A stretch of DNA of 64,000 bases from Nitrospirae bacterium GWC2_57_13 (GTDB taxonomy: Bacteria > Nitrospirota > UBA9217). Of this stretch, positions 10,970 through 59,699 are shown piece after piece. Location: assembly GCA_001805055.1 (NCBI GenBank), contig MHDZ01000033.1, forward strand, positions 4,404-68,403. Reading direction: 5' to 3'. Within the stretch, counting starts at the first letter, position 1, and each line of letters opens with the position of its first letter. The notes under the pieces are model-generated. The model was not told the DNA's origin, searched no databases, and saw only the letters and a list, made by a program, of their open reading frames with translations. The translations under genes were made by a program, and so were the position numbers.

Positions 10970-11489
<520 letters not shown>

Positions 11490-12384: not shown

Positions 12385-12478
12385 GTTATCCGTTTTGATC
12401 CGTGTCCACCCCATTAGACCCCGTCAGATCGGTTCTAACGGGGTAAATCCGTGGCCAAATGTTCTTAAAGGTGGATTT
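12385..12478 (-). repeat. miniature copy of the mosaic intergenic repeat (end unit - CCCCGTYAGA..TCTAACGGGG hairpin - end unit)
   Basis: GTTATCCGTTTTGATCCGTGTCC ... CCCCGTCAGATCGGTTCTAACGGGGTAAATCCGTGGCCAAATGTTCTT. It matches both the termini and the hairpin of the full copy at 58346-58634. It abuts the dinB start codon. Confidence 0.6.
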
Positions 12479-12481
12479 CCC

Positions 12482-13795
12482 ATGACCGACCAGCCCCTCA
12501 CCATCCGCTCCTGGCCGAAGGCGATCCTGCACATCGACGCCGACGCCTTTTTTGCCTCCTGCGAGCAGGCGGTCCGTCCCGAGCTTCGCGGCAGGCCCGT
12601 GATCACCGGCAAGGAGCGAGGCATCGTGGCCGCGGCGAGCTACGAGGCCAAGGCCCGGGGCGTGGAGCGGGGCATGCGGCTCTTCGAGGCGAAGAAGGTC
12701 TGTCCCGACGCGGTCATTCTTCCCTCGGACTACGAGACCTACAGCCTTTTTTCGATGCGCATGTTCGAGATCTTCAGGCGCTTCTCGCCCGACGTGGAGG
12801 AGTACTCCATCGACGAGGCCTTCGTGGACCTTACGGGCCTGCGGCGGAGCTTCCACGGGCCCTACTGGATGATCGCGCAGCGGATTCAGGAGACGGTGGC
12901 GCAGGAACTGGGGATCACTGTGTCCGCGGGTCTGAGCCTTTCGAAGGTGCTGGCCAAGATCGGTTCGAAGCACCGCAAGCCCCACGGCCTCACGGTCATT
13001 CCCGGCCGGGAGGTCCATGTCTATCTCAGGGACCTTCCGGTGGAGAAGGTCTGGGGCATCGGGCCGAACACCACGGCCTTTCTCCGGAAGTTCGGCGTTG
13101 TCACGGCCCTCGACCTGGCCCGGAAGGACGAGAAGTTCATCGAACAACATCTCTCCAAGCCATTTCGCGAGATATGGAACGAGTTGAACGGCCGGAGCAT
13201 GTATCCCGTGGTGACGGAGCCGAAGAACAGCTACCAGTCCATCAGCAAGGCGCGGACCTTCACCCCGCCGTCGAACGACGAGGCTTTTGTCTTTGCCCAG
13301 CTTGCGAAGAACCTGGAGAATGCCTGCATCAAGGCGCGGCGCTATCAGCTTGCGGCGGCGCGGCTTGTCGTGTTCCTCAGGCGCCAGGATTTTCAGGACC
13401 GGGGCGTGGAGATCAGGCTGAGCCGCCCCACCTCCTATCCCGCCGAGCTTTTCGAGCCGTTGCGGCAAGGCTTCCGGCAGCTCTACGCGCCGGCCGACCT
13501 CTACCGCCAGACCGGCGTGGTGCTCGGAGGCCTGGTGCCCGAGGGTTCTGTTCAGTACACGCTCTTCGATGATACGGCGAAGATCGAGAAGATGGCCAGG
13601 GTCTACGGCGCGGTGGATGAGCTGTCCCGGAAGTTCGGCAAGCATGCCATTCAGCACGCGGCGAGCCTGCCGGCCAAGCTGCAGGCCCGGCACGAGGGCG
13701 AGCGGGGAGATGTTCCGGAACGGAAGGCGCAGCTCTTTCGCGGTGAGAACAGCAGGCAGCGTCTGGGTCTGCCGCTGTTGCGGGTGAAGGTGTAA
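12482..13795 (+). CDS. dinB: Y-family DNA polymerase (DinB-type; ImuB not excluded)
   Basis: ILHIDADAFFASCEQ and PVITG...RGIVAAASYEAKARGV are the canonical Y-family N-terminal motifs, followed by little-finger-like regions. It lies near lexA. Confidence 0.85.
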   Translation: MTDQPLTIRSWPKAILHIDADAFFASCEQAVRPELRGRPVITGKERGIVAAASYEAKARGVERGMRLFEAKKVCPDAVILPSDYETYSLFSMRMFEIFRRFSPDVEEYSIDEAFVDLTGLRRSFHGPYWMIAQRIQETVAQELGITVSAGLSLSKVLAKIGSKHRKPHGLTVIPGREVHVYLRDLPVEKVWGIGPNTTAFLRKFGVVTALDLARKDEKFIEQHLSKPFREIWNELNGRSMYPVVTEPKNSYQSISKARTFTPPSNDEAFVFAQLAKNLENACIKARRYQLAAARLVVFLRRQDFQDRGVEIRLSRPTSYPAELFEPLRQGFRQLYAPADLYRQTGVVLGGLVPEGSVQYTLFDDTAKIEKMARVYGAVDELSRKFGKHAIQHAASLPAKLQARHEGERGDVPERKAQLFRGENSRQRLGLPLLRVKV

Positions 13796-13802
13796 ACCTG
13801 AA

Positions 13803-14012
13803 AAAAGCTTTTTTGACGCGGATAAAATCTGGAATGGCGGATAAGGACAGAAAAAAATGTTTTTTATATTGAAAAAGAATCGTCTTTGAGGTGAAAACGC
13901 TTTCTGCATAAATTCTGGAGTGAGCGCATTCCCCGTCACGCCAAGGCGGGACTGCGGGGAGCTTCAATGCCTGGTTTTATCTGCGGGAATCTGCGTCCAA
14001 CGGCCGTTTTTA
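13803..14012 (+). repeat. truncated copy of the mosaic intergenic repeat (left terminus present, right terminus absent)
   Basis: TTTTGACGCGGATAAAATC...GATAAGGACAGAAAAAAATG...TTGAAAAAGAATCGTCTTTGAGGTGAAAACG...GAATCTGCGTCCAACGGCCGTTTTTAGG is collinear with the 58346-58540 part of the full copy. Confidence 0.6.
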
Positions 14013-14046
14013 GGATAAAAGATATGTATCGCAGCCTGGCAGGGCG

Positions 14047-18617: not shown

Positions 18618-18639
18618 GGTAGAATTCCCCATTTCAATG

Positions 18640-18838
18640 ATCCTAGAAACGGCAGTTGGCCGCAGATTCACCCCGTTAGAAATAAGAATCTGCTAACGGG
18701 GTAAACGCAGATTTTTGCAGATTAAACCAGGCATTCGGACAGAAAGGGCATTCACCCCAAAGGGGATTCTTTTTCAACAGCAATTTTTTTGTCTGTTTTT
18801 ATCTGATCTTATCGGATGTTATCCGCGTCCAAATGTTC
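18640..18838 (-). repeat. truncated inverted copy of the mosaic intergenic repeat between the DAHP synthase gene and tyrA
   Basis: The reverse complement matches 58346-58540 almost base for base (AAGAACATTTGGACGCGGATAACATCCGATAAGATCAGATAAAAACAG...CCCCGTTAGCAGATTCTTATTTCTAACGGGGTGAATCTGCGGCCAACTGCCGTTTCTAGG). Confidence 0.7.
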
Positions 18839-18926
18839 TTTTCAGGATGATCGAAAGTGTTTTGGATTTTGGTTGTTGAAAAATTTTGTCGTTTGATTCT
18901 TGGACCCTGGAATATATAAAAAAGCT

Positions 18927-24067: not shown

Positions 24068-25762
24068 ATGATCGACAAGGAACAAGACTTCGAATACGAA
24101 GGCGAAGAAAGGACCGGCGAGCAGGGGCAGAATGAGTTCGAAAACCTGTATAACCAGTCCTTGAAAAGTTTCAAACAAGGGTCGGTCGTGAAAGGTACGA
24201 TTGCGCAGGTTCTGGCCGGTTCGGTGATGGTCGACGTGGGCTACAAGTCCGACGGTATGATTCCTGTTGATCAGTTCACGGCTGATGAGCTTGCCAGCCT
24301 TCAGCCCGGTGATGAGATCGAGGTCTTTCTTGAATCGGGTGAGGACTCCCACGGAAATCTGAGGCTGTCCCGGGAAAAAGCGAAGCGGATGCAGGCCTGG
24401 GACCATTTGAACAATGCCTACCAGAGCGGTTCTCCGATCAAGAGCAAAGTCCTCGCGAAGGTCAAGGGCGGGCTGTCCGTCGATATCGGCGTGAGCGCCT
24501 TTCTGCCCGGTTCGCAGATCGATATGCGGCCCCTGCGGAACCTGGACCAGTATCTCGGCAAAGTCCTTGATGTGAAGATAATCAAGATGAACCCCGGCAG
24601 GGGGAATATCGTCGTCTCCCGCAGGGCCATCCTGGAACAGCAGAGCGCTTCGCAGAAAGAGGAGACGCTGGCGAAATTGGCCGACGGACAGACCGTGAAG
24701 GGCATTGTCAAGAACATCACGGATTATGGTGCATTCATAGATCTGGGCGGCATCGACGGCCTGCTGCACATCACCGACATGTCCTGGGGGCGGATCGGCC
24801 ATCCCTCGGACCTGCTCAGCACGGGTCAGTCCATCGACGTAGTGGTGTTGAAATTTGATACCGAGCGGCAGAAGGTCTCACTGGGTCTTAAGCAGCAGAC
24901 GGAAGACCCCTGGCTCCGGGTGGCAGATCGTTTTCCCGTCAACGGGCGGGTGCGCGGCAAAGTCGTGAATCTTGCCGAGTACGGCGCTTTTATCGAGCTC
25001 GAGCCCGGCGTGGAGGGGCTCGTGCATGTCTCGGAAATGTCCTGGACCCAGAAGGTCAAGCATCCCTCCAGAGTCGTGTCCCTGGACGACGAGATCGAGG
25101 TGCAGGTGTTGTCCGTGGACCCGTCGGCCAAGCGCATCTCACTCGGGATGAAGCAGGTGGAGCCCAATCCGTGGCAGACCATCGCCGACCGCTATCCTGC
25201 AGGGACGGTCGTGGAGGGCAAGATCAAGACGATCACCGATTTCGGCGCTTTCGTCGGGATCGAAGAGGGCATCGACGGCTTGATCCATGTGTCTGACCTG
25301 TCCTGGACCAGGCACATCAAGCATCCTTCGGAGTTGCTGAAAAAGGGCCAGACTGTGAAGTCTATGGTGCTGAACATCGACGCTCAGAAGGAGCGCATCT
25401 CCCTGGGACTGAAGCAGCTCGATGCCGATCCCTGGGATAAGGGGATACCCGAACGCTATGCCATGGGCAGGGACGAGACGGTGAAAGTCGTCAAAGCCGC
25501 CGAATTCGGGCTCTTCGTCGGACTTGAGTTCGGCATCGAGGGCCTGATCCCCGCCTCGGAGATCCCGCGGGAATCAGAGGGGATCAAGGAAGGCGACGAA
25601 GTGACGGCCCGGGTGATCAAGGTGGACAGGGGAGAGCGAAAGGTCGCGCTCTCGATCAAGGCGCTTGTGAAGGGGAAGGACCGCGAGAGTGTGAAGGACT
25701 ACCTGGGACAGCAGGACAAGTTCGATACCACTATCGGTGCGCTTCTGAAAGGCAGGAACTGA
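24068..25762 (+). CDS. rpsA: 30S ribosomal protein S1
   Basis: Six S1 repeats (GxVxGxVxxIxxFGAFVxL). Canonical cmk-ispH-rpsA order. Confidence 0.9.
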   Translation: MIDKEQDFEYEGEERTGEQGQNEFENLYNQSLKSFKQGSVVKGTIAQVLAGSVMVDVGYKSDGMIPVDQFTADELASLQPGDEIEVFLESGEDSHGNLRLSREKAKRMQAWDHLNNAYQSGSPIKSKVLAKVKGGLSVDIGVSAFLPGSQIDMRPLRNLDQYLGKVLDVKIIKMNPGRGNIVVSRRAILEQQSASQKEETLAKLADGQTVKGIVKNITDYGAFIDLGGIDGLLHITDMSWGRIGHPSDLLSTGQSIDVVVLKFDTERQKVSLGLKQQTEDPWLRVADRFPVNGRVRGKVVNLAEYGAFIELEPGVEGLVHVSEMSWTQKVKHPSRVVSLDDEIEVQVLSVDPSAKRISLGMKQVEPNPWQTIADRYPAGTVVEGKIKTITDFGAFVGIEEGIDGLIHVSDLSWTRHIKHPSELLKKGQTVKSMVLNIDAQKERISLGLKQLDADPWDKGIPERYAMGRDETVKVVKAAEFGLFVGLEFGIEGLIPASEIPRESEGIKEGDEVTARVIKVDRGERKVALSIKALVKGKDRESVKDYLGQQDKFDTTIGALLKGRN

Positions 25763-41152: not shown

Positions 41153-41937
41153 CTACTCGACGGGACTTTATCAAGAAAACCATCATTACCGTCGCCGGTG
41201 CGGCCCTGCCCCTGACGGCCTTCGAGCTCCTCGATCCGAAGAAGCTTTTTGCCCAGGTTGCGGCGGAGAAGACCAGAGTGCGGTGGGCGTTCCTTATCGA
41301 CACCTATAAATGCGTGGGCTGCGGCTACTGCGTCAAGGCCTGCAAGCTCGAGAACGAGGTGCCCTACGAGGCAAATGCAACCCGCACCTGGGTCGAGCGC
41401 TACGTGCTGACCAAGGACGGCAAGTTCCTGGCCGACAGCCCCAAGGGCGCCCGCGACGGCTATACGACCTCGAAGATCGACCTCGGACTCGGCAACTACG
41501 AAGAAGTGAAGAACAACAACATCGAGAAGGCCTACTTCGTGCCGAAGCTCTGCAACCAGTGTGAGAATCCGCCCTGCGTGCAGGTCTGCCCTGTTGGCGC
41601 CACCTACCAGGCGCCCGACGGCGTAGTGCTCGTTGACCGCTCGTGGTGCATCGGCTGCGGCTACTGCATCATGGCATGCCCCTACGGCGTGCGATTTTTC
41701 CACCCCGTGCACCACACGGCGGAGAAATGCAACTACTGCTACCACCGCATCACCAAGGGCATGAAGACGGCCTGCGTGGACGCCTGCCCCTTCGGCGCAC
41801 GCCAGATAGGAAATATCAAGGACCCCAACGACCCGGTCACGAAGATCATCAGGACCCAGCGCGTCGCCGTGCTGAAGAGCGAATACGGGACGAAACCCCA
41901 GGCCTTCTACATCGGCCTGGACGAGGAGGTGCGGTAA
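41149..41937 (+). CDS. Tat-exported 4x[4Fe-4S] ferredoxin subunit (NrfC/PsrB/DsrO-like) (module 1)
   Basis: RRDF twin-arginine motif. Four CxxCxxC...CP cluster motifs. ATGA overlap with the cytochrome gene. Confidence 0.85.
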   Translation: MTTRRDFIKKTIITVAGAALPLTAFELLDPKKLFAQVAAEKTRVRWAFLIDTYKCVGCGYCVKACKLENEVPYEANATRTWVERYVLTKDGKFLADSPKGARDGYTTSKIDLGLGNYEEVKNNNIEKAYFVPKLCNQCENPPCVQVCPVGATYQAPDGVVLVDRSWCIGCGYCIMACPYGVRFFHPVHHTAEKCNYCYHRITKGMKTACVDACPFGARQIGNIKDPNDPVTKIIRTQRVAVLKSEYGTKPQAFYIGLDEEVR

Positions 41938-43190
41938 TGGTACATGGCGAGCTCTGGACCCTGAAGGAACTGTTCGTCCTGCCCAACGAGTACATCTACT
42001 GGAGCGTCCAGATCGTGATGTATCCCTTCATGACCGGTCTCGTGGCCGGGGCCTTCGTGCTCTCGTCGCTCTACCACGTCTTCGGCATCGAGAAGCTCAA
42101 GGACATGGCGCGGTTCGCCCTGGTGTTCTCGTTCGCGCTCCTGTTTGCGGCGCCGATGCCCATTGTGCTCCATTTGCAGTTTCCCTTCCGGGGCATTAAT
42201 GTATTCATGACGCCGCACTTCACCTCGGCCATCGCGGCTTTCGGCATTGTGTTCTTCACCTACGGCGCCATCGTCGCCTCGGAGCTCTGGTTCCTGTACC
42301 GGAAGCATTTCGTTGAGGTCGCTCTCAGGCTTCGCGAGAAGCAGGACAAGACGATGATGGAGTGGTTCTCGTATCTCATTTTCTGTTCCCTTACCCTGGG
42401 CGTCTATGACGTGAGCGAGGAATCCCTGCATCGCGACGAGAAAGCCATCAAGTTCCTGGCCGCACTCGGCATCCCCGTGGCCTGTTTCCTCCACGGCTAC
42501 GCCGGGTTCATTTTCGGGTCCGTGAAGGCGAATGCGCTCTGGATGACGCCGCTCATGCCGGTCATCTTCATCATGTCCGCGATCGTGTCGGGCATCGCAC
42601 TCTGCATGCTCACCTACATCGTGACCATGGAGATCCGCAAGTTCCTGGCCAAGCGGAAGCGCACCACCTATGGTGTCTACCAGACAACGGATCAGATCCG
42701 GAGCGTCGAGATCAACGTGATCCAGATGACCGCCAAGTACCTGCTGTACTTCATGGTCTTCGCCATCAGCCTCGAGGTGCTGGACCTCATCTTCCGCGGA
42801 TATACGGCCGTCAAGTCATGGGACGTGCTGCGCAGCGTTATCTACGGCAAGGACTTCACGAGCATCTTCATCCTGCAGTACGCCATCGGGAACCTGATCC
42901 CGCTCATCCTGCTCCTGACGCCGGGGCTGACCCTGCGCAGGACCCTGCTCGGCGTGCTGCTCGTGCTCTTCGGTGTGTTCATGATGCGTTGGAACGTGGT
43001 GATCGGCGGACAGGCTTTCTCCCTCACCTTTGCGGGATACATGCACTATCACTTGCCGATCGTGCCGCACTCCATGGAGACGTTCAAGGAAGGGCTCTTC
43101 GGCGCGCTCAGCATCTTCATCATGCCCTTTGTGCTGTTCTATTTCATCAGCAAGATATTTCCGGTCTTCGAGTACAAGGAAGCCCATTGA
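41937..43190 (+). CDS. NrfD/PsrC-family integral membrane quinone-interacting subunit (module 1)
   Basis: ~417 aa with about 10 TM helices. TAATG overlap with the FeS gene. Confidence 0.8.
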   Translation: MVHGELWTLKELFVLPNEYIYWSVQIVMYPFMTGLVAGAFVLSSLYHVFGIEKLKDMARFALVFSFALLFAAPMPIVLHLQFPFRGINVFMTPHFTSAIAAFGIVFFTYGAIVASELWFLYRKHFVEVALRLREKQDKTMMEWFSYLIFCSLTLGVYDVSEESLHRDEKAIKFLAALGIPVACFLHGYAGFIFGSVKANALWMTPLMPVIFIMSAIVSGIALCMLTYIVTMEIRKFLAKRKRTTYGVYQTTDQIRSVEINVIQMTAKYLLYFMVFAISLEVLDLIFRGYTAVKSWDVLRSVIYGKDFTSIFILQYAIGNLIPLILLLTPGLTLRRTLLGVLLVLFGVFMMRWNVVIGGQAFSLTFAGYMHYHLPIVPHSMETFKEGLFGALSIFIMPFVLFYFISKIFPVFEYKEAH

Positions 43191-43221
43191 CGGCCGCGCT
43201 TCCCAGGGAGGTGGTGATCCC

Positions 43222-43737
43222 ATGAAGAAGACGATCATGACGCTCCTGATGCTCTTCGGGCTGCTCCTCTCCGCTGCTACGGCTGCGGTTCGCGCCGATA
43301 CGCACGAACCCGACGTCCCGAAGAAGTTATTTGTTCCTCCCCCGCCTTTCACGCCGGGGATCTATCCCTGCTCCCAATGCCACGCAGGCATGCCTGTAGA
43401 CCGTAATCCACGGAAGCTCCAGGGCATGCATGACAACATTGCGTTGAAGCACATGCCGGGAGGCTGGTGCTTCGACTGCCACAACCCGAACAACCGTGAC
43501 ACCCTCCGGCTGGCGAACGGCAAGATCGTACGCTTCGAAGAGTCCTATAACCTCTGCGGCCAGTGCCACGGCACCATTCTTCGCGAATGGAAGGCCGGCC
43601 TGCACGGCAAGCGCACGGGCATGTGGAACGGCGAGAAGCAGTACCTGCTCTGTGTGCACTGCCACTGGCCCCATGATCCGAAGTTCAAGCCAATTCAGCC
43701 ACTGCCGCCCCCGGTGCGGCCGTCGGACATCAAGTAG
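43222..43737 (+). CDS. secreted tetraheme cytochrome c (module 2)
   Basis: Signal peptide. CSQCH, CFDCH, CGQCH and CVHCH heme sites. Confidence 0.8.
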   Translation: MKKTIMTLLMLFGLLLSAATAAVRADTHEPDVPKKLFVPPPPFTPGIYPCSQCHAGMPVDRNPRKLQGMHDNIALKHMPGGWCFDCHNPNNRDTLRLANGKIVRFEESYNLCGQCHGTILREWKAGLHGKRTGMWNGEKQYLLCVHCHWPHDPKFKPIQPLPPPVRPSDIK

Positions 43738-43761
43738 CGTCCTGACGCAGCGAGGTACGCC

Positions 43762-44688
43762 ATGCAAGACAAAAAGACACCAGAACGCAGCATTCAGCGG
43801 AGGACCTTTCTGAAAGGCGCGGCGCTCGGCCTGGCCGCCACGGCGCTTCCCTCGCGGGACGCCGAGGCCTCGATCTGGGAGGCCTTTTTTCAGAAGCACT
43901 TCCGAGAGATGAGCGAGGCAGAGATCAGGAAGGTGATCGGGAGGCTTGAGCAGGAATACGAGCAAAAGTACAAAAAAAAGATAACCGTCGGCATTGAGAA
44001 GCCCCTGCCCGGCGTGCTCTTCGGCTACGGTCTCGACCTTTCCCGGTGCATCGGCTGCCGCCGGTGCGTCTACGGATGCGTTGACGAGAACAACCAGTCC
44101 AAGGACCCGCAGATCCACTGGATCACCGTGCTCCGGTTCAAGAAGGGCGAGAAGTGGGTGGACCTGGAAGAATCGGAGAAGTACTACAATCCCTCTGCGG
44201 TCCCGGAGGAGGAGTATTTTTACATGCCGGTCCAGTGCCAGCAGTGCGAGAATCCGCCCTGCGTGCGTGTCTGCCCCACCCAGGCCACATGGAAGGACGA
44301 GGACGGCATCGTGGTGATCGACTACAACTGGTGCATCGGCTGCCGATACTGCATGGCGGCCTGCCCCTACGGCGCACGCCGGTTCAACTGGACCGACCCC
44401 GGACGGAAGACCGAGGAGCTCAACACCGAGACCCACTACCTGGGCAATCGCCCCCGGTTCAAGGGCGTGGTCGAAAAATGCACCTTCTGCATCCAGAGAA
44501 CGCGCAAGGAACCCGGACGGTATCCGGCCTGCGTGGAGGCATGCCCCGTGGGTGCGCGGAAATTCGGCAACCTGCTCGACCCCATGAGCGAGATCCGGTA
44601 CGCGATCGAGCATAAACGGGTCTTCCGCCTGAAGGAGGACCTGAACACCAATCCCAAGTTCTATTACTTCTTTGCCTACGGCGGGTGA
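43762..44688 (+). CDS. Tat-exported 4x[4Fe-4S] ferredoxin subunit (NrfC/DsrO-like) (module 2)
   Basis: RRTFLKG twin-arginine motif. Four Cys clusters, including CQQCENPPCVRVCP. Confidence 0.85.
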   Translation: MQDKKTPERSIQRRTFLKGAALGLAATALPSRDAEASIWEAFFQKHFREMSEAEIRKVIGRLEQEYEQKYKKKITVGIEKPLPGVLFGYGLDLSRCIGCRRCVYGCVDENNQSKDPQIHWITVLRFKKGEKWVDLEESEKYYNPSAVPEEEYFYMPVQCQQCENPPCVRVCPTQATWKDEDGIVVIDYNWCIGCRYCMAACPYGARRFNWTDPGRKTEELNTETHYLGNRPRFKGVVEKCTFCIQRTRKEPGRYPACVEACPVGARKFGNLLDPMSEIRYAIEHKRVFRLKEDLNTNPKFYYFFAYGG

Positions 44689-50368: not shown

Positions 50369-50467
50369 TGGCGGGAGAGCATGAGAATCGAACTCACCTT
50401 CCCCAGCGCAGGCTGAGGAACAACGGATTTGAAGTCCGGGACGGGCACCAGCTCCGTACGCTCTCCC
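50369..50467 (-). tRNA. selC: tRNA-Sec (anticodon UCA), CCA encoded
   Basis: Folded by hand from GGGAGAGCGTACGGAGCTGGTGCCCGTCCCGGACTTCAAATCCGTTGTTCCTCAGCCTGCGCTGGGGAAGGTGAGTTCGATTCTCATGCTCTCCCGCCA. It has an 8-bp acceptor stem, the anticodon arm GGACUUCAAAUCC shared with E. coli selC, a long variable arm and a GTTCGATTC T-loop. Confidence 0.85.
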
Positions 50468-50607
50468 GTTCTGTAGAGGGCCGAGGGATGAAGGAAAACC
50501 GCGGATCAATGCAGAACGGCTATGAACGGATTATACTTGAGACATTGTCAGCGTGCAACGGTTTTTTCCCGGCGCCTGAAGCAGGCAGAGAAACTGTCCC
50601 TCTGTTG

Positions 50608-52590
50608 TCACGCGTCTTTACCGCTCATGAGATTGTGCGCCGCATCCAGTTCGTTGTGCGCGCCGAGCAGAACAAGAATGTCCCCTGCTTTGAGCCGAAA
50701 GTCCGGGCCGGGATTTGTGATGGCCTTTCCATTTCTCGCCACGGCGATGATGGTCGCCCCCGTGGCGTTCCGGATATCAAGCTCCCGCAGGCTTCTGTCA
50801 GCGGACGGTGATCCTTCCGGGACCTGAAAATTATCAACCGTGGAGCCTCCGAAAAGGGCGGCAATGCGTCCGATATTCTCCTGTTCCAGCGATATGCCGC
50901 GCAGCATTTTATACCCCTCGAAGCGGATCAGGCTTATCTGGTTCGCGATCACGTTTGCGGGGATGTGATATTGGTGCAGGACGCGCGAGAAAATCTCGAT
51001 CGATGTTTCGAACTCCTCGGGGATCACCTGGTCGGCGCCGAGCTTGTAGAGGCCATCGACCTCCAGGGAGTACCGCGTGCGGACCAGGATGAAGATCGTG
51101 CCGTTGAGCTGCCGGGCCAGCCGCACGGAGATGCGCGTGGCCGCATAATCGGAGATGGCGAATACGATGGCCTTGGCGCAGTCGATCCCCGCACGCCTGA
51201 GCACATCTGGCCGGGTGATGTCGCCGTAAATGATCGGCTCTCCCTCGCTTCGCGCCGTCCGGATGGTATCGGCATTCACTTCAAGGATCACATAGGGGAT
51301 GTGTGTGGCCTTCAGCGTTCTGGCCAGATTTCGGCCGTTGATGCCGTAGCCCGCAATGATGGTGTGTCCTGCCAGAGAGCAGGTATCGCCCTGAGGCTGG
51401 ACCGGCCGCAGGCCGAAGGGCAGACGGTCGACAAGCCAGGGGCTGAACTGGATGACAAAGGGCGTTGCCAGCATGCTCATGATGGACGCAGTGATAAAGG
51501 TCTGGAACAGGTCGCCGCTGATCAGCCCCTTCGCCTGCCCCTGCTGTGCCAGCAGGAAGGCGAATTCTCCGATCTGCGCCAGGCCGAGTCCGGCGAGCAG
51601 GGCGCTGCGGATAGGATAGCGGAGCGCCTTCGCGGTGATGATGACGATAGCGGCCTTGACGAAGACAAGCAGGGCTGTCAGGGTCAGCAGCCACACCCAG
51701 TGAGCGACGAAATAGTTGATCACCAGCAGCATGCCGATGGAGATGAAAAAAATGCTCGAAAAATAGTCCCGGAAGGGGATGATGTCAGCCACGACATGAT
51801 GGCTGTATTCGGATTCTGATATGATCAGCCCCGCCAGAAAGGCGCCCAGGGCAAGGGACAGGCCGAGACGATAGGTGACCCAGGCGGTACCCAGGCAGAT
51901 CAGTACGATCAGCAGAAAGAACATCTCCCGGTTCTTGAGGCGGATCACCTGGTGCAGGAGCGAGGGGACAACCTTGCGGGCGATAAAAAAGACGGCAACA
52001 ACACCGGCAGCCGAGGTTCCGAGCGTGGTCAGAACTGAGACGGCCGTAACGGTTCCGGCGGCGCTTGCCTGGCCCAGCACAGGAAGCAGAAGCATCATCG
52101 GCACAACGGCAATGTCCTGGAACAGAAGTATCCCCGTGGCAAGCCTGCCGTGGGCCGAGTCGATCTCGACGCGGTCAGCGTACATTTTGAGGACAATGGC
52201 CGTGCTGCTGAGAGAGGCAAGAAAGCCGAAGAACACGGCCTGCGGGACGGGAAAACCAAGAAAGAGGGAGATGCCGGTGGCGACAGCGATGGTCATGAGC
52301 ACCTGGACGGCGCCGCCGATCAGAAACTGCCTGCCTGAGCGGATGATGTCGGTCAGAGAGAATTCGATGCCCACCGTGAACAGCAGCAGCACCACGCCGA
52401 TCTCGGCGAGGCGTTCAACTATGCTCATTTCGGTGATGAAAGCCGCGCCGTGGGGGCCGATGACCACGCCGGTGATCAGGAATCCCACAATGGCCGGTAG
52501 CTTCATCTTATGAAAAATGAAGGTGATGGGGAGCGATACAGCCAGCAGGATAATAAGTTCCCGTAGTATGATTATCTCGTGTTCGGGCAT
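50608..52590 (-). CDS. CPA2-family K+/H+ (monovalent cation:proton) antiporter with TrkA-N/TrkA-C (RCK) domains
   Basis: ~13 TM Na_H exchanger domain, then IIAGYGINGRNLA-type Rossmann RCK domains. 660 aa. Confidence 0.85.
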   Translation of the reverse strand: MPEHEIIILRELIILLAVSLPITFIFHKMKLPAIVGFLITGVVIGPHGAAFITEMSIVERLAEIGVVLLLFTVGIEFSLTDIIRSGRQFLIGGAVQVLMTIAVATGISLFLGFPVPQAVFFGFLASLSSTAIVLKMYADRVEIDSAHGRLATGILLFQDIAVVPMMLLLPVLGQASAAGTVTAVSVLTTLGTSAAGVVAVFFIARKVVPSLLHQVIRLKNREMFFLLIVLICLGTAWVTYRLGLSLALGAFLAGLIISESEYSHHVVADIIPFRDYFSSIFFISIGMLLVINYFVAHWVWLLTLTALLVFVKAAIVIITAKALRYPIRSALLAGLGLAQIGEFAFLLAQQGQAKGLISGDLFQTFITASIMSMLATPFVIQFSPWLVDRLPFGLRPVQPQGDTCSLAGHTIIAGYGINGRNLARTLKATHIPYVILEVNADTIRTARSEGEPIIYGDITRPDVLRRAGIDCAKAIVFAISDYAATRISVRLARQLNGTIFILVRTRYSLEVDGLYKLGADQVIPEEFETSIEIFSRVLHQYHIPANVIANQISLIRFEGYKMLRGISLEQENIGRIAALFGGSTVDNFQVPEGSPSADRSLRELDIRNATGATIIAVARNGKAITNPGPDFRLKAGDILVLLGAHNELDAAHNLMSGKDA

Positions 52591-52640
52591 TGGCTCCCCT
52601 TGCAGCTTCGACAGAAAAAAAAGAGGGCACGGGGTTCGCT

Positions 52641-54539
52641 TCAGCGCAACACGCGTTTATCCCCGATGCGTTGCGTCACCTTCTGCGTGTCGAAATATTC
52701 CAGTATCGGGACGGCAAACTTGCGCGACGTTTTCGCGAGGTCCCGAAATTCGGCCACGGTGATCTCTTTCTTATCCTTCAGATGGCTGAGAAGATCGGCG
52801 CGCATCTTCTCGACCACGCCCCTGTGCAGGTGGAGTGAATCATTGATGCGTACGGTCCTGCCTTCATCGGCGAGCAGTTTCAGGAGGTCGCGGGCGTCCT
52901 TGTCGGTGATCTTGAGCAGCGCCGGGAGCTCCTCCCGGAGGGGGGGCTGTGCTCCGCCTTTTTGGATGGCGTCCACGATGCTGTTTTTGATCTCGCCGGG
53001 AGCCTGGCCGCTGCCTGGCTTGAAGGAGGGGAGCCGCAGCTTCGAACCTTCGGCGTCGAGCAGCTTCCGCTTAACCAGCCCGTCAACGCTCATGGCCAGG
53101 ACCCGGGGATGCAGCCGGATCCTGAGCATGCCCTTCAGTTCCTCCTTGTCGATACCCGGCTTGAGGGGGTTGTTCTTATGAAAGGCTTCGATCAATGCCA
53201 GGATGCGCGCGTCCAGATCGGTAAGATGGCTGCTGTGCACATAGAGGGAGTCAGTGCGCAGGATCGCTTTTTTCTGGGTTGCTGTTGCGAGCGCGTCCAT
53301 GACGACCTGTTTCTCCGCAGCCGTGGAGCCAACGATGTCCGCCTCCTCCATCCCGGCGACGCCTTTTCCTGCGATCAAGACCGGTAGTTTTTCCTCGAGC
53401 CCGCCCTGCAAGAGAGTCTCAAGGTTCTTGAGAGACGCGGCCATGGTGCTCTTCCGGTGCCTGCGGGGCTGGGGATCGAGCACCACACCGCCGCCAAGCG
53501 TTTCCAGGGGGGAGTAGAACCGGATGATGAACCGATCTCCGTGCTGGATGATCACAGGATCTTCCAGCCGGAACTGAACAAAGCCCTCATCTCCAGGCTG
53601 GAGCTCATTGCTGCCGATCAGTGCTGCCCTGCCGATAGCCTCCTGGGTCGAATTATAAAAGCGGATGCGTGATCCGGTCTTGAGCACTCGCGACGCCTGC
53701 TTCAGCAGTGACAGCCGGACGTCAACGTTCCGTGTAGGCTTGAAGAAACCCTTGCTCACGATGGTGTCGCCGCGCGACAGATCGTCCTTCTCAACGCCTT
53801 GCAGGTTCACGGCGGTGCGCTGGCCCGCAACGGCGCGCGTCACCGGTTTGTTGTGGGACTGGACGCCGCGCACCTTTGTTTTGACGCCCGCCGGCAGGAT
53901 CTCCACTTCCTGTTCAAGGCTGATGGCGCCGGAAAGGATCGTTCCCGTAATGACCGTGCCGAAGCCCTTCATGGTGAATACGCGGTCGATGGGCAGCCGG
54001 AGAATGCCATCCGCAGACTTTGGCGAAACGTCCCGTGAAAGTTTGTCGAGCTCCGCAACGAGCTGCGGAAGGTTCTCTCCGGTGAGCGAGGAGACAGGGA
54101 CCAGGGGCGACTTTTCCAGGAAGGTGCCCTTTACGAACTGCCGCACCTCGTCCTTGACCAGATCGAGCCAGTCCTTCTCGACGGCGTCCATCTTGGTCAG
54201 CGCTATGATGCCCTTTTTGACCGCCAGGAGGTCGCAGATGGCAAGATGCTCGCGCGTCTGGGGCATGATGCCTTCGTCCGCTGCGATGACGAGCATCACC
54301 ACGTCGATGCCGCCCACGCCGGCTAGCATGTTCTTGATCAATCCTTCGTGGCCGGGCACGTCCACGATGCCGAGACGGCTGCCGCCCGGCAGGTCAAGGG
54401 AAGCGAAGCCGAGGTCCAGGGTGATGCCCCGTGCCTTTTCTTCTTTCAGACGGTCCGGGTCCGTGCCCGTCAACGCCTTGACGAGGCTCGATTTTCCGTG
54501 GTCTATATGTCCGGCAGTGCCGAGGATGACGTATTTCAT
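52641..54539 (-). CDS. selB: selenocysteine-specific translation elongation factor
   Basis: GTAGHIDHGKSSL G-domain, EF-Tu-like domains II/III and a C-terminal winged-helix extension (632 aa). Confidence 0.9.
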   Translation of the reverse strand: MKYVILGTAGHIDHGKSSLVKALTGTDPDRLKEEKARGITLDLGFASLDLPGGSRLGIVDVPGHEGLIKNMLAGVGGIDVVMLVIAADEGIMPQTREHLAICDLLAVKKGIIALTKMDAVEKDWLDLVKDEVRQFVKGTFLEKSPLVPVSSLTGENLPQLVAELDKLSRDVSPKSADGILRLPIDRVFTMKGFGTVITGTILSGAISLEQEVEILPAGVKTKVRGVQSHNKPVTRAVAGQRTAVNLQGVEKDDLSRGDTIVSKGFFKPTRNVDVRLSLLKQASRVLKTGSRIRFYNSTQEAIGRAALIGSNELQPGDEGFVQFRLEDPVIIQHGDRFIIRFYSPLETLGGGVVLDPQPRRHRKSTMAASLKNLETLLQGGLEEKLPVLIAGKGVAGMEEADIVGSTAAEKQVVMDALATATQKKAILRTDSLYVHSSHLTDLDARILALIEAFHKNNPLKPGIDKEELKGMLRIRLHPRVLAMSVDGLVKRKLLDAEGSKLRLPSFKPGSGQAPGEIKNSIVDAIQKGGAQPPLREELPALLKITDKDARDLLKLLADEGRTVRINDSLHLHRGVVEKMRADLLSHLKDKKEITVAEFRDLAKTSRKFAVPILEYFDTQKVTQRIGDKRVLR

Positions 54540-54699
54540 AAGTAGTGCGGTAGACAGTAGTCAGCAATCAGTAGACAGCAGACCGTGAACAGTAAACAGC
54601 TGACAGTACATAGTAAAGAGTATACAGCAGACTGAAAGTAAAGAGAGAAGCAGAAAAGGTTTTTGAATTCAACCCTGCATGCTGTTTACGGCATGCAGT

Positions 54700-56109
54700 C
54701 TACGTTAGAATCTTTTTCACCGCTTCAACGATCTTTCCGATCTCGCCGTCATTCAGCGTCCGGGGGTCGAAGAGGACCATCCCTTCCTTTATGCGTGTGA
54801 TGACGTGGGGTTTGTCGATCCGCAGGCGCGATTCGATCTGGTTCGCACTGAGGCGGTCATGGGCCAGGGCAATGACCCTGGTCGGAAGATTGCCCATCGG
54901 GAGGGCCCCGCCGCCGGTCTGGGACTGCTCATCCTGCACTGTGGCTGCCAGTCCCGTGATGCCGAGAGCGCGAAGGCCCCCGGCCAGGAGCGAAGCCTTG
55001 CGTTCGATCTCCTGCAGCGGCTGTGTGAGCATCCAGAGCGTGGGGATATCGCGCGCCGCCTTTTTCATGTCCAGGTACTGAGCAAGGGTCGCTTCGAGGG
55101 CAGCCAGCGTGAGCTTGTCGATGCGCAGGGCACGGGCGAGGGGATTCGCCCGTATGGGATCGAGAAAGGACGTTCTCCCGAGTACCATGCCGGCCTGAGG
55201 GCCGCCCAGCAGCTTGTCGCCGCTGAAGGTCAGAATGTCCACGCCAGCGTCCATGGCCTGCTTTACCGTGGGCTCGTCGCCGACGCCGTAGGATGCCAGG
55301 TCAAGGAAACTGCCGCTTCCCAGGTCCCACATAACCGGGATGTTGTGCTTTTTTCCGAGTCCGGCCAGCTCCTGGGCCGAGACCTCCTTGGTGAAGCCGA
55401 CGATCTTGTAGTTGCTCGTATGGACCTTCAGCAGCAGCCCCGTATTCTCGGTGATCGATTTTTCATAGTCCTTCAGGTGGGTCTTGTTCGTCGTGCCCAC
55501 CTCGCGAAGTTTCGCACCGCTCCGCTCCATCACCTCGGGAACACGGAAGGAGCCGCCGATCTCGACAAGTTCACCGCGTGAGACGATCACTTCCTTCCCC
55601 CGCGCCAGGGTATTCAGGCAGAGCAGCACGGCAGAGGCGTTGTTGTTCACTGCCGTGGCGGCTTCCGCACCGGTCAGGCGCCTGAGTATGTTCTCGACAT
55701 GGATATACCGCTTGCCCCGATCACCGGCAGGGATGTCGTACTCAAGGTTCGAATAGCTGCCGCTCACCTCGATCATTCGCCGTATAGCAGTCTCGCTCAG
55801 GAGGGACCGGCCGAGATTGGTGTGGACCACCACGCCCGTGGCGTTGATGACGGAACAAAGGCTCGGCTCATTCAGTTCGAAAAGGATCCGCTCTGCTTCG
55901 ATGAGGATCTGCTCAGCCGAAAGGCCTGCTTCGCTTCCTGCAGGCGGTCCGGCGAGGATCCTTTTGCGCGTACGGTCCAGGGCGGTCCTGAGCGCTTCCA
56001 GCACCAGGACCCGGGGATGTGAGTCAAGCCACTGCTGAGTCTTGTTCTCTTTCAGCAGTTCGTCCACAGCAGGAAGCTTTTTGAGCAATTCTTTCATAGA
56101 ATTTACCAT
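54700..56109 (-). CDS. selA: L-seryl-tRNA(Sec) selenium transferase
   Basis: SelA N-terminus (LPAVDELL) and PLP-fold motifs (GSF..., K in FSGDKLLGGPQAG). Start at 56109 or 56133. Confidence 0.9.
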   Translation of the reverse strand: MVNSMKELLKKLPAVDELLKENKTQQWLDSHPRVLVLEALRTALDRTRKRILAGPPAGSEAGLSAEQILIEAERILFELNEPSLCSVINATGVVVHTNLGRSLLSETAIRRMIEVSGSYSNLEYDIPAGDRGKRYIHVENILRRLTGAEAATAVNNNASAVLLCLNTLARGKEVIVSRGELVEIGGSFRVPEVMERSGAKLREVGTTNKTHLKDYEKSITENTGLLLKVHTSNYKIVGFTKEVSAQELAGLGKKHNIPVMWDLGSGSFLDLASYGVGDEPTVKQAMDAGVDILTFSGDKLLGGPQAGMVLGRTSFLDPIRANPLARALRIDKLTLAALEATLAQYLDMKKAARDIPTLWMLTQPLQEIERKASLLAGGLRALGITGLAATVQDEQSQTGGGALPMGNLPTRVIALAHDRLSANQIESRLRIDKPHVITRIKEGMVLFDPRTLNDGEIGKIVEAVKKILT

Positions 56110-56269
56110 AGCATAGTTATACGGGAATATCAACAGTAAGGGGACAGTCCCCTTCGCCCAGGGGGGACTGTCCCCTTGCCGGATTTTATTGCTTGCCCTT
56201 TTCCTCGGTACTAGAGTATAATATTTTTCTACCGAACAGTTCTACCAAATATGATAAGGAGTCAGGTGC

Positions 56270-57050: not shown

Positions 57051-58250
57051 ATGAAAAAGAACCTTCTTGTCTTCCTGGGAGCGCTTGCAGCGTGCTGTCT
57101 TGCCGTTCTCGCCTGGATACTCATTGTCATCAACAGCCTTCCTGATGTTTCTCTCCTGAAACAGTACCGTCCTGATGCGGCGGCCGAGGTGTTCGACCGT
57201 GAGGACCGCATACTCACGCAGTACTACGAGCGGAAGTTCCGTATCCGTATTCCGATAACCAACCTGCCCGACATGGTCATTCATGCTGTCACTACCGCAG
57301 AGGACGATACCTTCTTCGATCATGGGGGGGTGAATTACCGGGCGACCTGGGAGGCACTGCTGCATGACGTAAGGCAGCGCCGGTTCGCGCGGGGCGGCAG
57401 CACAATCACGCAGCAGATGATCAAGAATGTATTCCTCTCACGGGAAAAGACCATTAACCGCAAGATCAGGGAGTACGTTCTTGCCCGCAGGGCCGAAGAG
57501 ATCCTGTCCAAGCGCAGGATCCTGGAGATCTATCTGAACGAGGTGGAGTGGGGCGAGAACATCTACGGCATCGAGGCGGCAAGCCGGGCCTATTTTGACA
57601 AGCATGCATCGGAGCTGAGCGCCGCCGAGGCCGCGCTGCTTGCCGGCATGCTGCCCAACCCCCGGTTCTTCGATCCCCTCAAACGTCTGGACAAGGCTAA
57701 GGCCCGGCAGGATCGGGTGCTGTTCAATATGTTTCAGGCCAAGTTGCTTACTGAGGACGAATATGGTGCCGCGCAGACCGCCCCTTTGGCGCTCAGGACC
57801 GGATCGTCAGGGAGGTTCGATCTTTCGGCCCTGGCCGGCAGGAACGGCCGCCCTTGCTATCAGAAGATCCTGGAGCAGATCCTCCTCGACAGCTACTCGG
57901 ACCACGCGCTGTACCGCCAGGGGATCAAAGTGCGCACCACGCTCGACAAGGACTTGCAGGAGCGGTTGTGCTCCTGGATGCGCGAGGAACATGACAACGG
58001 CGGAACAGCGGCGGACCATGTTGCTGCTGCGGTGCGGCCTCCGATCCTGGTCGTGAAGGAGGGTGGTCAGATCCGGGCGATCGTCTGTGTCAGGAATGCG
58101 GAGGCAGCCCGATTACTGCTCGATTCGCTCAATCCCCGGGAGCGGGAATACGAGGTCGAGGAGGTCTTGTTCAGTTCTATCATGATGGACGATATCATCG
58201 TGTCCGTGGAAACGGTCGGCGACGGGCAGGAACTTCAGACAGGCCGGTGA
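57051..58250 (+). CDS. monofunctional peptidoglycan glycosyltransferase (GT51) with C-terminal extension
   Basis: N-terminal TM. GT51 motifs EDDTFFDHGG, GGSTITQQ and RKIRE. No transpeptidase domain. Confidence 0.8.
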   Translation: MKKNLLVFLGALAACCLAVLAWILIVINSLPDVSLLKQYRPDAAAEVFDREDRILTQYYERKFRIRIPITNLPDMVIHAVTTAEDDTFFDHGGVNYRATWEALLHDVRQRRFARGGSTITQQMIKNVFLSREKTINRKIREYVLARRAEEILSKRRILEIYLNEVEWGENIYGIEAASRAYFDKHASELSAAEAALLAGMLPNPRFFDPLKRLDKAKARQDRVLFNMFQAKLLTEDEYGAAQTAPLALRTGSSGRFDLSALAGRNGRPCYQKILEQILLDSYSDHALYRQGIKVRTTLDKDLQERLCSWMREEHDNGGTAADHVAAAVRPPILVVKEGGQIRAIVCVRNAEAARLLLDSLNPREREYEVEEVLFSSIMMDDIIVSVETVGDGQELQTGR

Positions 58251-58345
58251 TTCTGCAAAACCGAGAAAGGGCAGTTGGAACCACGGATGAACACTGTCAA
58301 GGCCGTAAGGCAAGGCTTATATCGGACGCTTCATCATGAAAAGAG

Positions 58346-58634
58346 CATTTGGACGCGGATAAAATCCGATAAGATCGGATAAAAAAAGACAAACAACTCT
58401 TTTGCTGTTGAAAATGAATCACCTTTGGGGTGAAGGCCCTTTCTGTCCGAATGCTGGGTTTTACCCAAGAAAAGCTGCGTTCACCCCGTTAGAAGATTCG
58501 TATTTCTAACGGGGTGAATCTGCGGCCAACTGCCGTTTTCAGGTGCATTCGTTCGGTGATGTTGTTTATTCGGAGAACGTTTTGCACTATCCGTCCTTAT
58601 CCGCTGTTTTCGATTTTATCCGTGTCCAATAACG
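58346..58634 (+). repeat. full-length mosaic MITE-like intergenic element with ~34-bp imperfect terminal inverted repeats
   Basis: Left TIR TTGGACGCGGATAAAATCCGATAAGATCGGATAA. Right TIR (reverse complement) TTGGACACGGATAAAATCGAAAACAGCGGATAA. Internal hairpin CCCCGTTAGAAGATTCGTATTTCTAACGGGG. It lies between convergent genes, and three related copies are elsewhere in the window. Confidence 0.7.
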
Positions 58635-58658
58635 TTTTTCCGGTTTTACTGCTTCCGA

Positions 58659-59699
58659 TCAGAACTCGATGTTCGGCCTGAGGATGAACTGGAACTCATC
58701 GTTCTGCCGGTTCGTCCCGAGGCTGCCTGTGTATTTCTTCGCCGACTCCCAGACGAAACCGACCGCAAGGGCGGGAGCCATCTTCCGGCTCTCGAGGGGC
58801 CATTTCTTCTCAATGAAAAAATAGTGGCGAATGGCGCTGAAAGTCCTGCGGTCCATGTCGAAGGTGTATTCGAATCCGCTGTTATCGAGGAACGAGGACC
58901 GTGACGGCTTGTAGTCGAGCCTGCTCCGGCGCATGGACAGGAACAGGATGTCCGTGATCTCAGGATGTTCATGAAGCTTCAGGCCGAGACGGAAACTCCA
59001 GCTCAGCTTCCGTTCCGGCGATTTCCGGTCTCCCTTGACCTTCCATTCGAATTCCCGCCAGTTGTCCCGTATCAGCACGTTGTCCTTGATGTGGCGATCT
59101 CCAACGCTCATCAGGAGGCCCGAGTAGCCCTTGCCTTTCACATCCGGCTTTTCCGGAATATCGAAATCCACCACGTTCCCAAAAAAGAGCGAGACTGCGT
59201 AGGGCTCCTGGAACCCGGCGGTCACCGCCTTCACCCAGTTGAAGCTCCCTGAAACCTCGGCATTGTCATAGAACCGGGTGTGGTTCTTGCGTATATACGC
59301 GCCCGCGTAAGGCAGAGGGTTCACACTGGCTTCGAGCACCATGAAGCGGGGGATAAGGGACCCCGATAGGAGCGCCTGGTAGATCTCCGCCTCTTTTTTC
59401 TCGCCGAGCTGGGGGATGGGCTTGCTGGTGAGCGCCAGGAAAAGAGCGACGTTTGAATAGTAGGCGTCCGTTTCAATTTCCAGGTCGAACCATCGCTCGC
59501 GGCCTTTTTCGTTTGTTGCTGCTCGGTCTGTCTGCTGTTCGTCAGAGTGTTCTGCAGAGACGGGAAAGGGAAGGAAAAGTACCAGGAGCAACAGAAGGAG
59601 GGCAGGGTAAGAATATCGTCTGGGCATTACTGCGACTGACTGGGCCATGGAAGTAGTATAGCATACCGCGACACGAAGGCCGCAACCAAAATCCGCCAC
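58659..59699 (-). CDS. outer-membrane beta-barrel protein, hypothetical
   Basis: Signal peptide. Alternating amphipathic beta-strand pattern. C-terminal Phe (...RPNIEF). The start may lie at an internal Met. Confidence 0.5.
   Translation of the reverse strand: MADFGCGLRVAVCYTTSMAQSVAVMPRRYSYPALLLLLLVLFLPFPVSAEHSDEQQTDRAATNEKGRERWFDLEIETDAYYSNVALFLALTSKPIPQLGEKKEAEIYQALLSGSLIPRFMVLEASVNPLPYAGAYIRKNHTRFYDNAEVSGSFNWVKAVTAGFQEPYAVSLFFGNVVDFDIPEKPDVKGKGYSGLLMSVGDRHIKDNVLIRDNWREFEWKVKGDRKSPERKLSWSFRLGLKLHEHPEITDILFLSMRRSRLDYKPSRSSFLDNSGFEYTFDMDRRTFSAIRHYFFIEKKWPLESRKMAPALAVGFVWESAKKYTGSLGTNRQNDEFQFILRPNIEF

Follow-up and report, generated by a model that had tools for sequence, protein, structure and literature searches.

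A nested intergenic repeat of an uncultured Nitrospirota bacterium and the association of its hairpin module with a small GIY-YIG gene

The described systems that come closest to the repeat reported here are those of the Ssn family, single-domain GIY-YIG nucleases of ~94 amino acids (aa) (cd10448) that bind NTS/SRM hairpin repeats on single-stranded DNA (ssDNA), cutting upstream of the repeats (Chenal et al., Nat Commun 2025, PMC11893778). The Ssn genes are flanked by the SRM repeats, which are present in hundreds of copies per genome. The authors of that study remark on a layout resembling an insertion sequence (IS) and on the parallel with repetitive extragenic palindromes (REP), REP-associated tyrosine transposases (RAYT) and bacterial interspersed mosaic elements (BIME); the word 'duplication' is absent from the main text (PMC11893778). 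A keyword literature search for GIY-YIG together with repeats, transposable elements of the miniature inverted-repeat type (MITEs) or transposons returned nothing relevant beyond a general superfamily review and the Ssn paper. The present analysis concerns a dispersed intergenic repeat in a stretch of 64,000 nucleotides (nt) from Nitrospirae bacterium GWC2_57_13 (contig MHDZ01000033.1, positions 4,404 to 68,403 of the forward strand), referred to below as the window, where an element of ~290 bp at 58346-58634 and three further copies had been proposed to form a MITE/BIME-like mosaic repeat family. On balance, the feature is probably a composite of two nested non-autonomous mobile elements, in which a hairpin lies within a MITE-like backbone of ~215 bp (window copies A to D) and is linked to a cassette that encodes a small GIY-YIG protein.

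The hairpin and its metagenomic partner gene resemble the Ssn/SRM pair in several respects. The partner is a single-domain GIY-YIG protein of about 90 residues (86 aa) encoded between inverted repeats that can form a hairpin, the same repeats are also dispersed through the genome, a conserved non-palindromic flank stands beside the stem, and gene and repeats together show an IS-like layout. In contrast to Ssn/SRM, the hairpin stem is longer (10-15 bp) and does not fit the published motif, the gene is enclosed by the two half-arms of a single split palindrome (7/7 loci) and not by two complete hairpins, the right arm is part of the coding sequence, and the 86-aa protein is without the W..W..LIE..NP.W.DL C-terminal segment of the Ssn-like proteins. 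Compared with the Ssn/SRM paper, target duplication, empty sites and in-frame insertions are demonstrated for the hairpin here.

The published SRM motif, HGTCWYN(0-2)YYVSBRHN(0-5)WNVSBRGN(0-2)RNCYNB, was searched on both strands of the hairpins with 20 nt of flank. None of the 126 hairpins matched, and four matches were obtained in the positive control, a locus on plasmid pShin-01 of the cultured strain Shinella sp. HZN7 (L172, 594949-596343), where a 94-aa GIY-YIG gene is situated amid four copies of CGTCATCCTCGGGCTTGACCCGAGGATCC in a textbook SRM arrangement. The 86-aa protein is 36% identical to this SRM-flanked Shinella protein and 44% identical to YazA (UPF0213) of B. subtilis. With a profile of the 86-aa family, used as a proxy for placement relative to cd10448, YazA scored 47 bits and the Ssn-like proteins (Shinella, L114 and L117) 34-46 bits. 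By analogy, the hairpin system may be classed as one that works like Ssn/SRM, yet as a distinct variant of it, and the protein as a distinct subfamily.

Hairpin module, insertion sites and GIY-YIG cassette

A strong hairpin had been described inside the element, and its presence was confirmed. In copy A the arms are perfect and 15 nt long (58480-58494 and 58504-58518), and the fold as ssDNA was calculated at -17 kcal/mol (z -7.3). In copies A and B, as in two copies from other contigs (L071 and L121; L numbers denote fetched loci), the hairpin is located just inside the last ATCTGCG unit of the backbone right end; copy C is without it. The family consensus is GRTTYA-CCCCGTTAGA-loop-TCTAACGGGG-TRAAYC, with a length of 29-60 bp (~35 bp in the window repeat) and arms of 10-15 bp. 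A scan with CCCCGTTAG-N(8-16)-CTAACGGGGTRAAYC recovered it on at least 118 metagenome contigs, where the flanks are unrelated and the host GC content ranges from 32 to 62%. A looser pattern recovered 19 viral contigs, and no cassette carrying an open reading frame (ORF) was found among the hairpin-bearing viral contigs. The element was unmatched in the plasmid database, in which the GIY-YIG protein had only distant matches, and a literature search with the literal element sequences found nothing.

Among 117 non-redundant hairpins, 75 were intergenic, 18 had the stop codon of an ORF in the flank or arm and 24 lay within open frames. Beyond the fixed arms the stem covaries, the second inner pair being AT in 53, TA in 38, GC in 14 and CG in 4 cases, and identical loop variants recur on unrelated contigs. 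No gene family was present beside more than seven of the 122 hairpin loci that were examined for neighbour enrichment, which argues against a gene-specific regulatory element. Judged by its sequence and distribution, the hairpin is a separate element and far more widespread than the backbone.

Filled and empty sites were compared between orthologous metagenome loci of 80-87% identity. On L017 (2363-2421) the filled site reads TTCA-CCCCGTTAGAAAG-33 nt-CTTTCTAACGGGG-TTCA, and the empty site on L018 has a single TTCA. In a second pair, TTTA and TTTG surround the insert on L017 (1245-1277) and the empty site on L056 has one TTTA. Insertions into coding sequence were found as well. The gene of a CDC48-like AAA ATPase is interrupted in frame by 33 nt, made up of a 29-nt hairpin and 4 further nt, on L017 (3834-3862), L101 (6395-6424) and L018 (4785-4814), by which RPVRNGISNG-type residues are added, whereas the ortholog without it on L056 (8758-8785) reads EDVTIERLA. 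For two pilin-like genes, removal of the insert and of one flank copy (TTCA in L013, TTTA in L135) restores the residues G-F-T-L-I-E. The flanks have the form T-N-N-A on both sides, with the consensus GRTTYA on the side that was free of constraint by the search pattern, and the 5' flank may possibly serve for recognition of one particular strand, in the manner of the NTS/SsnA pair. The comparisons indicate that the hairpin is mobile in its own right and inserts at TNNA sites with a 4-bp duplication.

Other readings of the hairpin were dropped. An attC-like reading of GTTAGA/TCTAAC was rejected, as core and inverse core stand in the opposite order and the element is not long enough, and a DnaA-box reading of TTATCCGCG, as only 6/9 positions match and the CACA core is missing. 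Pairs resembling the uptake sequences DUS and USS were no longer considered in view of the target duplications and the ORF-carrying version. At one locus (L044, 6598-6632, and L100), orthologous hairpins have reverse-complemented loops (atgctcgctat vs atagcgagcat), which suggests either that recombination between the arms has flipped the loop or that the two orientations go back to independent insertions. On L009 (3331-3556) the hairpin is split at its loop by a 205-nt insert with CGCGAAGG-type simple repeats and without GIY-YIG similarity, and arm pairs around 33-284 nt of other content are also present on L014, L056 and L084.

The coding partner was recognised on L033 and L075, where arm pairs 255-260 nt apart enclose an 86-aa ORF. 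This ORF is situated between CCCCGTTAGAGAT and ATCTCTAACGGGG in all seven independent loci (L075, L033, L129, L130-134, L135, L136 and L137-139). Those other than L033 and L075 were obtained by look-ups of homologs from five further taxa, each with the same layout, T..A-CCCCGTTAGAGAT(A), 8-25 nt, ATG ... CTA TCT CTA ACG GGG, mostly followed by TAA. The last residues of the protein, SLTG, are encoded by the right arm, and in most cases a TAA or TGA of the flank is the stop codon; the whole cassette measures ~300 bp. In L137 the same change is present in both arms (GTTAGTGAT and ATTACTAAC). When positions with the same residue were compared among seven genes, the fraction of identical codons was 0.89 in the last six codons and 0.52 in the first eighty. 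The last six codons had the highest codon identity of all six-codon windows, and this peak at the 3' end shows a constraint on the arm at the DNA level.

Out of 120 homologs, ~110 have the sequence FL[SF]LTG; ~85 end there and ~30 read on into the flank, often continuing with Phe (TTY), which fits the TTYA flanks. On L135 (1483-1767) a pilin-like gene that lies downstream of a T2SS-F gene harbours the cassette in its G-F-T-L-I-E codons, with a TTTA duplication, and because the flank at this site gives no stop codon, the ORF is a fusion of nuclease and pilin, its product (P0064) being joined to the N-terminus of the pilin. The 86-aa protein is a bare GIY-YIG domain (Pfam PF01541, E 6e-17, residues 1-68) with no other domain. 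No NCBIfam model scored above its cutoff, TIGR01453 remaining below it; a weak match was obtained to PHROG 314 'homing endonuclease' (E 1e-5), and the closest solved structures are the UPF0213 proteins 1zg2 and 1ywl. The family comprises at least 5904 clusters at 90% identity. Its members are 76-93% identical across Omnitrophota, Patescibacteria, Planctomycetota, WOR-3, Elusimicrobiota and Flavobacteriales, and such high identity between phyla points to horizontal spread. Small GIY-YIG genes flanked by direct repeats of 22-30 nt, and not by hairpin arms, were also seen on L110 (111-423) and L117 (8343-8666), the protein of the former being 47% identical to the 86-aa family and that of the latter Ssn-like. 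This hints that other small GIY-YIG subfamilies are mobile as well.

The ~215-bp backbone unit and its copies

A self-search of the window with 58245-58733 as query aligned 58330-58537 with 18850-18647 at 87.6% identity over 209 nt (E 1e-64) and gave weaker matches at 13799-14014 and 12433-12458. An nhmmer profile built from five full copies found only four loci in the 64 kb (58331-58545, 18639-18850, 13795-14017 and 12397-12461) in addition to a partial reverse match at 58645-58480. The dispersed repeat of the original prediction is thus real, and the similarity among its four loci survives proper alignment, with E values of 1.8e-70 to 2e-53 for the full units. When six copies were aligned together with their flanks, the similarity began at ATC(A/C)TCCTGAAAAG and ended at TTTYYAGGAT, and since it starts and stops at the same terminal bases, the recurrent unit was set at ~215 bp. 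The left and right limits of the similarity between copy A and the other copies are ATCATGAAAAG and TTTTCAGGTG, respectively. The features in the window are the following.

58330..58546, plus strand: copy A, full unit with left end, core, nested hairpin and right end (nhmmer E 1.8e-70; 87.6% identical to copy B)
58330..58387, plus strand: left end of copy A, with terminal ATCATGAAAAGAGCATTTGGACGCGGAT followed by GGATAA/ATCCG units (end motif at 58341-58360)
58476..58522, without strand: nested hairpin mini-element, TTCA-CCCCGTTAGAA-GATTCGTAT-TTCTAACGGGG-TGAA (perfect arms, DNA fold)
58515..58546, minus strand: right end of copy A, GAATCTGCGGCCAACTGCCGTTTTCAGGTGC, the inverted counterpart to the left end (end motif at 58518-58537, minus)
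58590..58645, minus strand: solo left-type end, inverted (end motif at 58618-58637, minus; partial nhmmer match 58645-58480)
18639..18852, minus strand: copy B, full unit with the hairpin at 18667-18705 (nhmmer E 4e-69)
13795..14018, plus strand: copy C, full unit of a diverged subfamily without hairpin (nhmmer E 2e-53)
12386..12476, plus strand: copy D, miniature with end units GTTATCCGTTTTGATCCGTGTCCA, a degenerate hairpin and the right end ATCCGTGGCCAAATGTTCTTAAAGG

The ~290 bp that had been taken as the reference full-length copy are accordingly a composite of the ~215-bp unit, a spacer of ~45 nt and the inverted solo end. A 34-nt imperfect inverted repeat does exist at the limits proposed for it (29/34 matches; arms 58338-58366 and 58612-58640); it arises because the solo left-type end stands inverted to the left end of copy A. 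This solo end resembles the left end of copy C (GGATAAAATC...GCGGATAAGGAC). Altogether the window holds three full units (A and B with the hairpin, C without), one miniature (D) and one solo end, so that the earlier description of one copy as a miniature is retained and that of the remainder as one full and two truncated is replaced by three full units. In the alignment copy C has no hairpin and one ATCTGCG unit fewer; its use as an exact empty site for the hairpin was given up, as with one 10-bp unit fewer it is not a clean one. The hairpin of copy D (12409-12443) is degenerate, with a duplicated left arm, and lies between two end units.

The end motif AANNNNNNTTGGMCRCRGAT occurs eight times in the window, compared with 0.2 expected. 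Its occurrences form the pairs 58341+/58537-, 18648+/18840- and 13804+/14008-, and those at 58637- and 12466- are unpaired. The terminal inverted repeat has a length of ~27-35 nt (ATCCTGAAAAnnGCAnTTGGnCGCrGAT) and is followed by 10-bp-periodic ATCCG/GGATAA units at both ends; left and right ends match at 25/35 positions in copy A, 20/28 in B and 19/27 in C. We infer that the periodic units are putative subterminal repeats to which a transposase encoded in another part of the genome would bind. A promoter-like ATGAAA-18-TAAAAT is present at 58336-58365 in the left end of copy A, TAAAAT being -10-like, and all six aligned copies have the hexamer TAWAAT in their left ends.

The ~215-bp unit contains no ORF that matches Pfam, and the backbone sequence matched nothing named in the resources that were searched. 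For Rfam, the whole window gave tRNA-Sec as its sole match at the gathering threshold; with E values up to 1, no match was obtained in 58250-58700 or in the GIY-YIG cassette of L075, and this check, which had been proposed together with the original prediction, leaves the element without a known RNA family.

Further full copies were found on L071 (7643-7861) and L121 (11587-11803), both from the JGI metagenome project Ga0154442 and with the same GC content (57%). Copies A, B, L071 and L121 are 82-89% identical in unrelated contexts, and copy C is ~75% identical to the others. Backbone fragments are present on L054 and L109, and a more distant copy on L009, a metagenome-assembled genome (MAG) of Desulfuromonadales. 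At the site of copy B, a relative with a 95% identical DAHP synthase has kept only the left-end half, with an indel of ~130 nt, and in relatives at 79-82% the spacers measure 31 and 57 nt and contain nothing of the element. Upstream of dinB, L167, the relative at 95%, shows only one end unit and lacks the hairpin. Downstream of dinB, a strongly diverged left end is present in the 95% relative, and copy C is absent from relatives at 81-83%. The orthologous sites in the distant relatives are thus empty, yet too diverged for comparison at the base level. From these sequences, the backbone behaves like a MITE, non-autonomous and apparently confined to this Nitrospirota lineage and a few other groundwater and sediment MAGs.

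Proposed mechanism and rival explanations

The hairpins share with REP and BIME sequences that they are short extragenic palindromes in many copies, which combine with other motifs into mosaic intergenic blocks, and that their spread is attributed to a nuclease gene present as a single copy with the repeats on its own flanks. The REP/BIME analogy put forward earlier is apt in this respect, as the hairpin belongs to a palindromic family tied to a small nuclease gene, a parallel drawn for Ssn/SRM by Chenal et al. 2025 (PMC11893778). In contrast to REPs, the hairpin flank is GRTTYA / TRAAYC with no GTAG-type head, and the family spans phyla whereas REPs are species-specific. The partner protein has the GIY-YIG fold and not the HUH fold of the RAYTs, and no Y1 domain is present in the ~60 ORFs of the window. 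IS200/IS605 and RAYT-type elements are not known to make a target duplication, whereas the hairpin has one of 4 bp. The palindrome-associated elements derived from IS200/IS605 (PATEs) are like the hairpin in their very small size, tetranucleotide-type target and probably hairpin-dependent mobility; unlike them, the hairpin has symmetric arms and the 4-bp duplication, where they have differing ends without duplication, and no Y1 transposase was seen.

Bacterial MITEs (Correia, Nezha, Chunjie, RPE) are likewise small, non-coding and dispersed, with inverted ends and nested or truncated copies. The ~215-bp unit and the hairpin are both small and non-coding and have inverted repeats at their ends. 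A target duplication, as MITEs have, is seen for the hairpin, whose in-frame insertion into genes recalls the Rickettsia palindromic elements. The hairpin is, however, far shorter (29-60 bp) than classical MITEs, and no DDE-transposase parent sharing the ends was seen. In place of an autonomous parent, a coding version with the same arms exists, whose product is the 86-aa GIY-YIG nuclease and not a proven transposase. The designation as a MITE/BIME-like mosaic therefore holds for a non-coding, dispersed, modular intergenic repeat bounded by inverted repeats, and not for shuffled modules of a single element, since independent elements are nested here. Likewise, the earlier statement that no named family is resembled stands for the sequence of hairpin and backbone, which were unmatched in the resources searched, and not for the kind of element, for which Ssn/SRM is a close analogue.

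What the sequences show are the repeats and the way in which they are nested, the empty sites and target duplication found for the hairpin, the physical association of gene and arms and the DNA-level constraint on the arm. The steps proposed beyond this concern the enzymology, the mover of the backbone and any present activity of either element in this genome and are put conditionally. The backbone ends would be bound by a transposase encoded elsewhere in the genome. The hairpin would have been inserted beside the right end of one backbone copy before that subfamily multiplied, as can be deduced from its presence in A, B, L071 and L121 and its absence from the older copy C. By analogy with Ssn/SRM, the nuclease would recognise the hairpin on ssDNA and cut beside it, by which the spread of the cassette and of ORF-less hairpins would be driven. 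The mosaic look of the copies results from nesting, truncation and solo ends.

Several points weigh against this proposal. GIY-YIG enzymes are hydrolytic nucleases and we know of no transposase with this fold, so that the joining step and the 4-bp duplication are unexplained. A simple cut-and-duplicate model also fails to explain the flank pairs, of which 35/119 are identical and 23/119 exactly inverted. No GIY-YIG gene of the 86-aa family was found in the window or in the four Ga0154442 contigs with the same element family, and the window hairpins may therefore be orphans. The metagenome loci were picked by the hairpin pattern itself, which biases the invariance of the arms and their co-occurrence. 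As to target-site duplications, whose search the original prediction had suggested, the 4 bp at filled and empty sites apply to the hairpin, and none was recognisable from five copies of the backbone. A parent element or transposase of the backbone was found neither in the window nor in the fetched loci, scans of the collections with the backbone ends not having been made. As to copy number, which had earlier been put at hundreds per genome, a scan of the genome collection with a pattern of hairpin plus right end gave only 4 loci in three MAGs.

A different, rather unlikely, explanation is that the hairpin is primary and spreads by other means, and that the GIY-YIG gene is a parasite of the homing type, which cuts ORF-less hairpins and is copied into the loop during repair via homology of the arms. 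The constant position of the ORF at the loop of one split palindrome would fit this, as would loops of 33-284 nt with content other than GIY-YIG between arms and the fact that the weak database matches (PHROG 314, E 1e-5; TIGR01453, below cutoff) fall in homing-endonuclease families. However, arms and ORF co-vary as a unit in L137, and in all loci the last four codons and usually the stop are borrowed from the arm or flank, which speaks for long co-inheritance. The cassette in the L135 pilin gene, moreover, has its own 4-bp duplication and was thus inserted where no hairpin pre-existed.

Two explanations without mobility of this kind concern the unit as RNA or as host DNA. That the ~215-bp unit is a duplicated gene of a small RNA or a cis-regulatory RNA, with a promoter in the left and a terminator-like structure in the right end, is improbable. 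In the left ends a -35-like CTGAAA stands 17-18 nt upstream of the conserved -10-like TAWAAT, the unit folds strongly (z -5.5) and GCGGCCAACTGCCGTTTT at the right end can be read as a weak terminator, but the opposite strand folds equally well or better (z -6.2), as for any inverted-repeat element. The lack of an Rfam match even at an E of 1, the occurrence of copies in all orientations to their neighbours, between convergent genes and within an operon spacer, the truncated or absent copies in close relatives and the dispensable hairpin (copy C) also speak against an RNA. Still less probable is a set of immobile host cis-elements, in which the hairpin acts as terminator or mRNA stabiliser, the ATCCG arrays bind a nucleoid or regulatory protein, and copies are similar through selection or gene conversion. 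It would account for the 18/117 hairpins that begin within a few bases of a stop codon and the 75 that are intergenic, for the 10-bp period of the end units, which fits protein binding or DNA bending, and for similar unit arrays upstream of dinB in an 83% relative without the hairpin. Yet no T-run follows the hairpin, and target duplications at filled and empty sites, in-frame insertions in coding genes and pilin leader regions, and identical loop variants in unrelated genomes are contrary to it; sequence identity across phyla would be hard to obtain by convergent selection.

Going beyond the composite of nested elements, it is conceivable, although this is a tentative proposal that may well prove wrong, that the hairpin and the 86-aa GIY-YIG gene make up a hitherto undescribed family of mobile elements, minimal and autonomous, which extends across phyla. 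Such elements may be ~300 bp long, with inverted ends of 13-15 bp and a 4-bp TNNA duplication, and may borrow their last codons and stop from the element end and the target, and their 29-60-bp hairpin derivatives may insert between genes, in frame and into other repeats including that of the window. If true, a transposon-like element of the nuclease-only (GIY-YIG) kind would be known from bacteria for the first time, and the mobility of Ssn-type systems would be directly supported. The main interest lies in the hairpin-GIY-YIG cassette and not in the lineage-specific backbone. A very large and highly conserved family of tiny GIY-YIG genes now has insertion evidence at the sequence level in the form of target duplication, empty sites and in-frame gene hits, and the hairpin loci offer a concrete, testable case for mobility, which the 2025 Ssn work left open. 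The new hairpin-enzyme pair might also extend the toolbox for ssDNA cutting. For annotation of intergenic repeats in uncultured Nitrospirota it is useful that nesting of independent mobile pieces explains a BIME-like look.

Gene neighbourhoods in the window

A domain search of the ~60 window ORFs found no transposase, integrase, Y1 or GIY-YIG domain, in agreement with the earlier statement that no transposase is present. Copy A (58330..58546) is located between a GT51 transglycosylase gene and a convergent ORF without known identity. Copy B lies in the spacer between the genes of DAHP synthase and prephenate dehydrogenase, a locus found in identical form in Rifle groundwater assemblies; the DAHP synthase has 100% identity to the one of Nitrospirae bacterium GWC2_57_13. 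Copy D ends 5 nt upstream of the dinB ATG and copy C begins directly after the dinB stop codon.

The dinB gene (12482-13795), bracketed in this way by copies D and C, is part of an SOS-type cluster (9940-13795) which also includes a LexA-like S24 peptidase (9940-10710) and a BrnT toxin (10976-11248). The sequence AAAGGTGG just 5' of the dinB ATG is supplied by the right end of copy D. A second cluster, for selenocysteine insertion (50369-56133), comprises tRNA-Sec (50369-50467, minus strand) near SelB (52641-54539) and SelA (54700-56133).

In an intergenic region at 2116-2361, TTGGACGCAGAT, which is similar to the end motif, is followed by arrays of CACGAAG (four times) and CTCTGTG (three times). 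Arrays of degenerate 7-10-mer units of the same class flank hairpins in many metagenome loci (L008, L010, L012, L050 and L102). Direct repeats reported by the repeat finder at 41299-44584 and 24749-25570 are coding and unrelated to the element, the former corresponding to paralogous 4Fe-4S / NrfD-type oxidoreductase subunits and the latter to the S1 domains of ribosomal protein S1.

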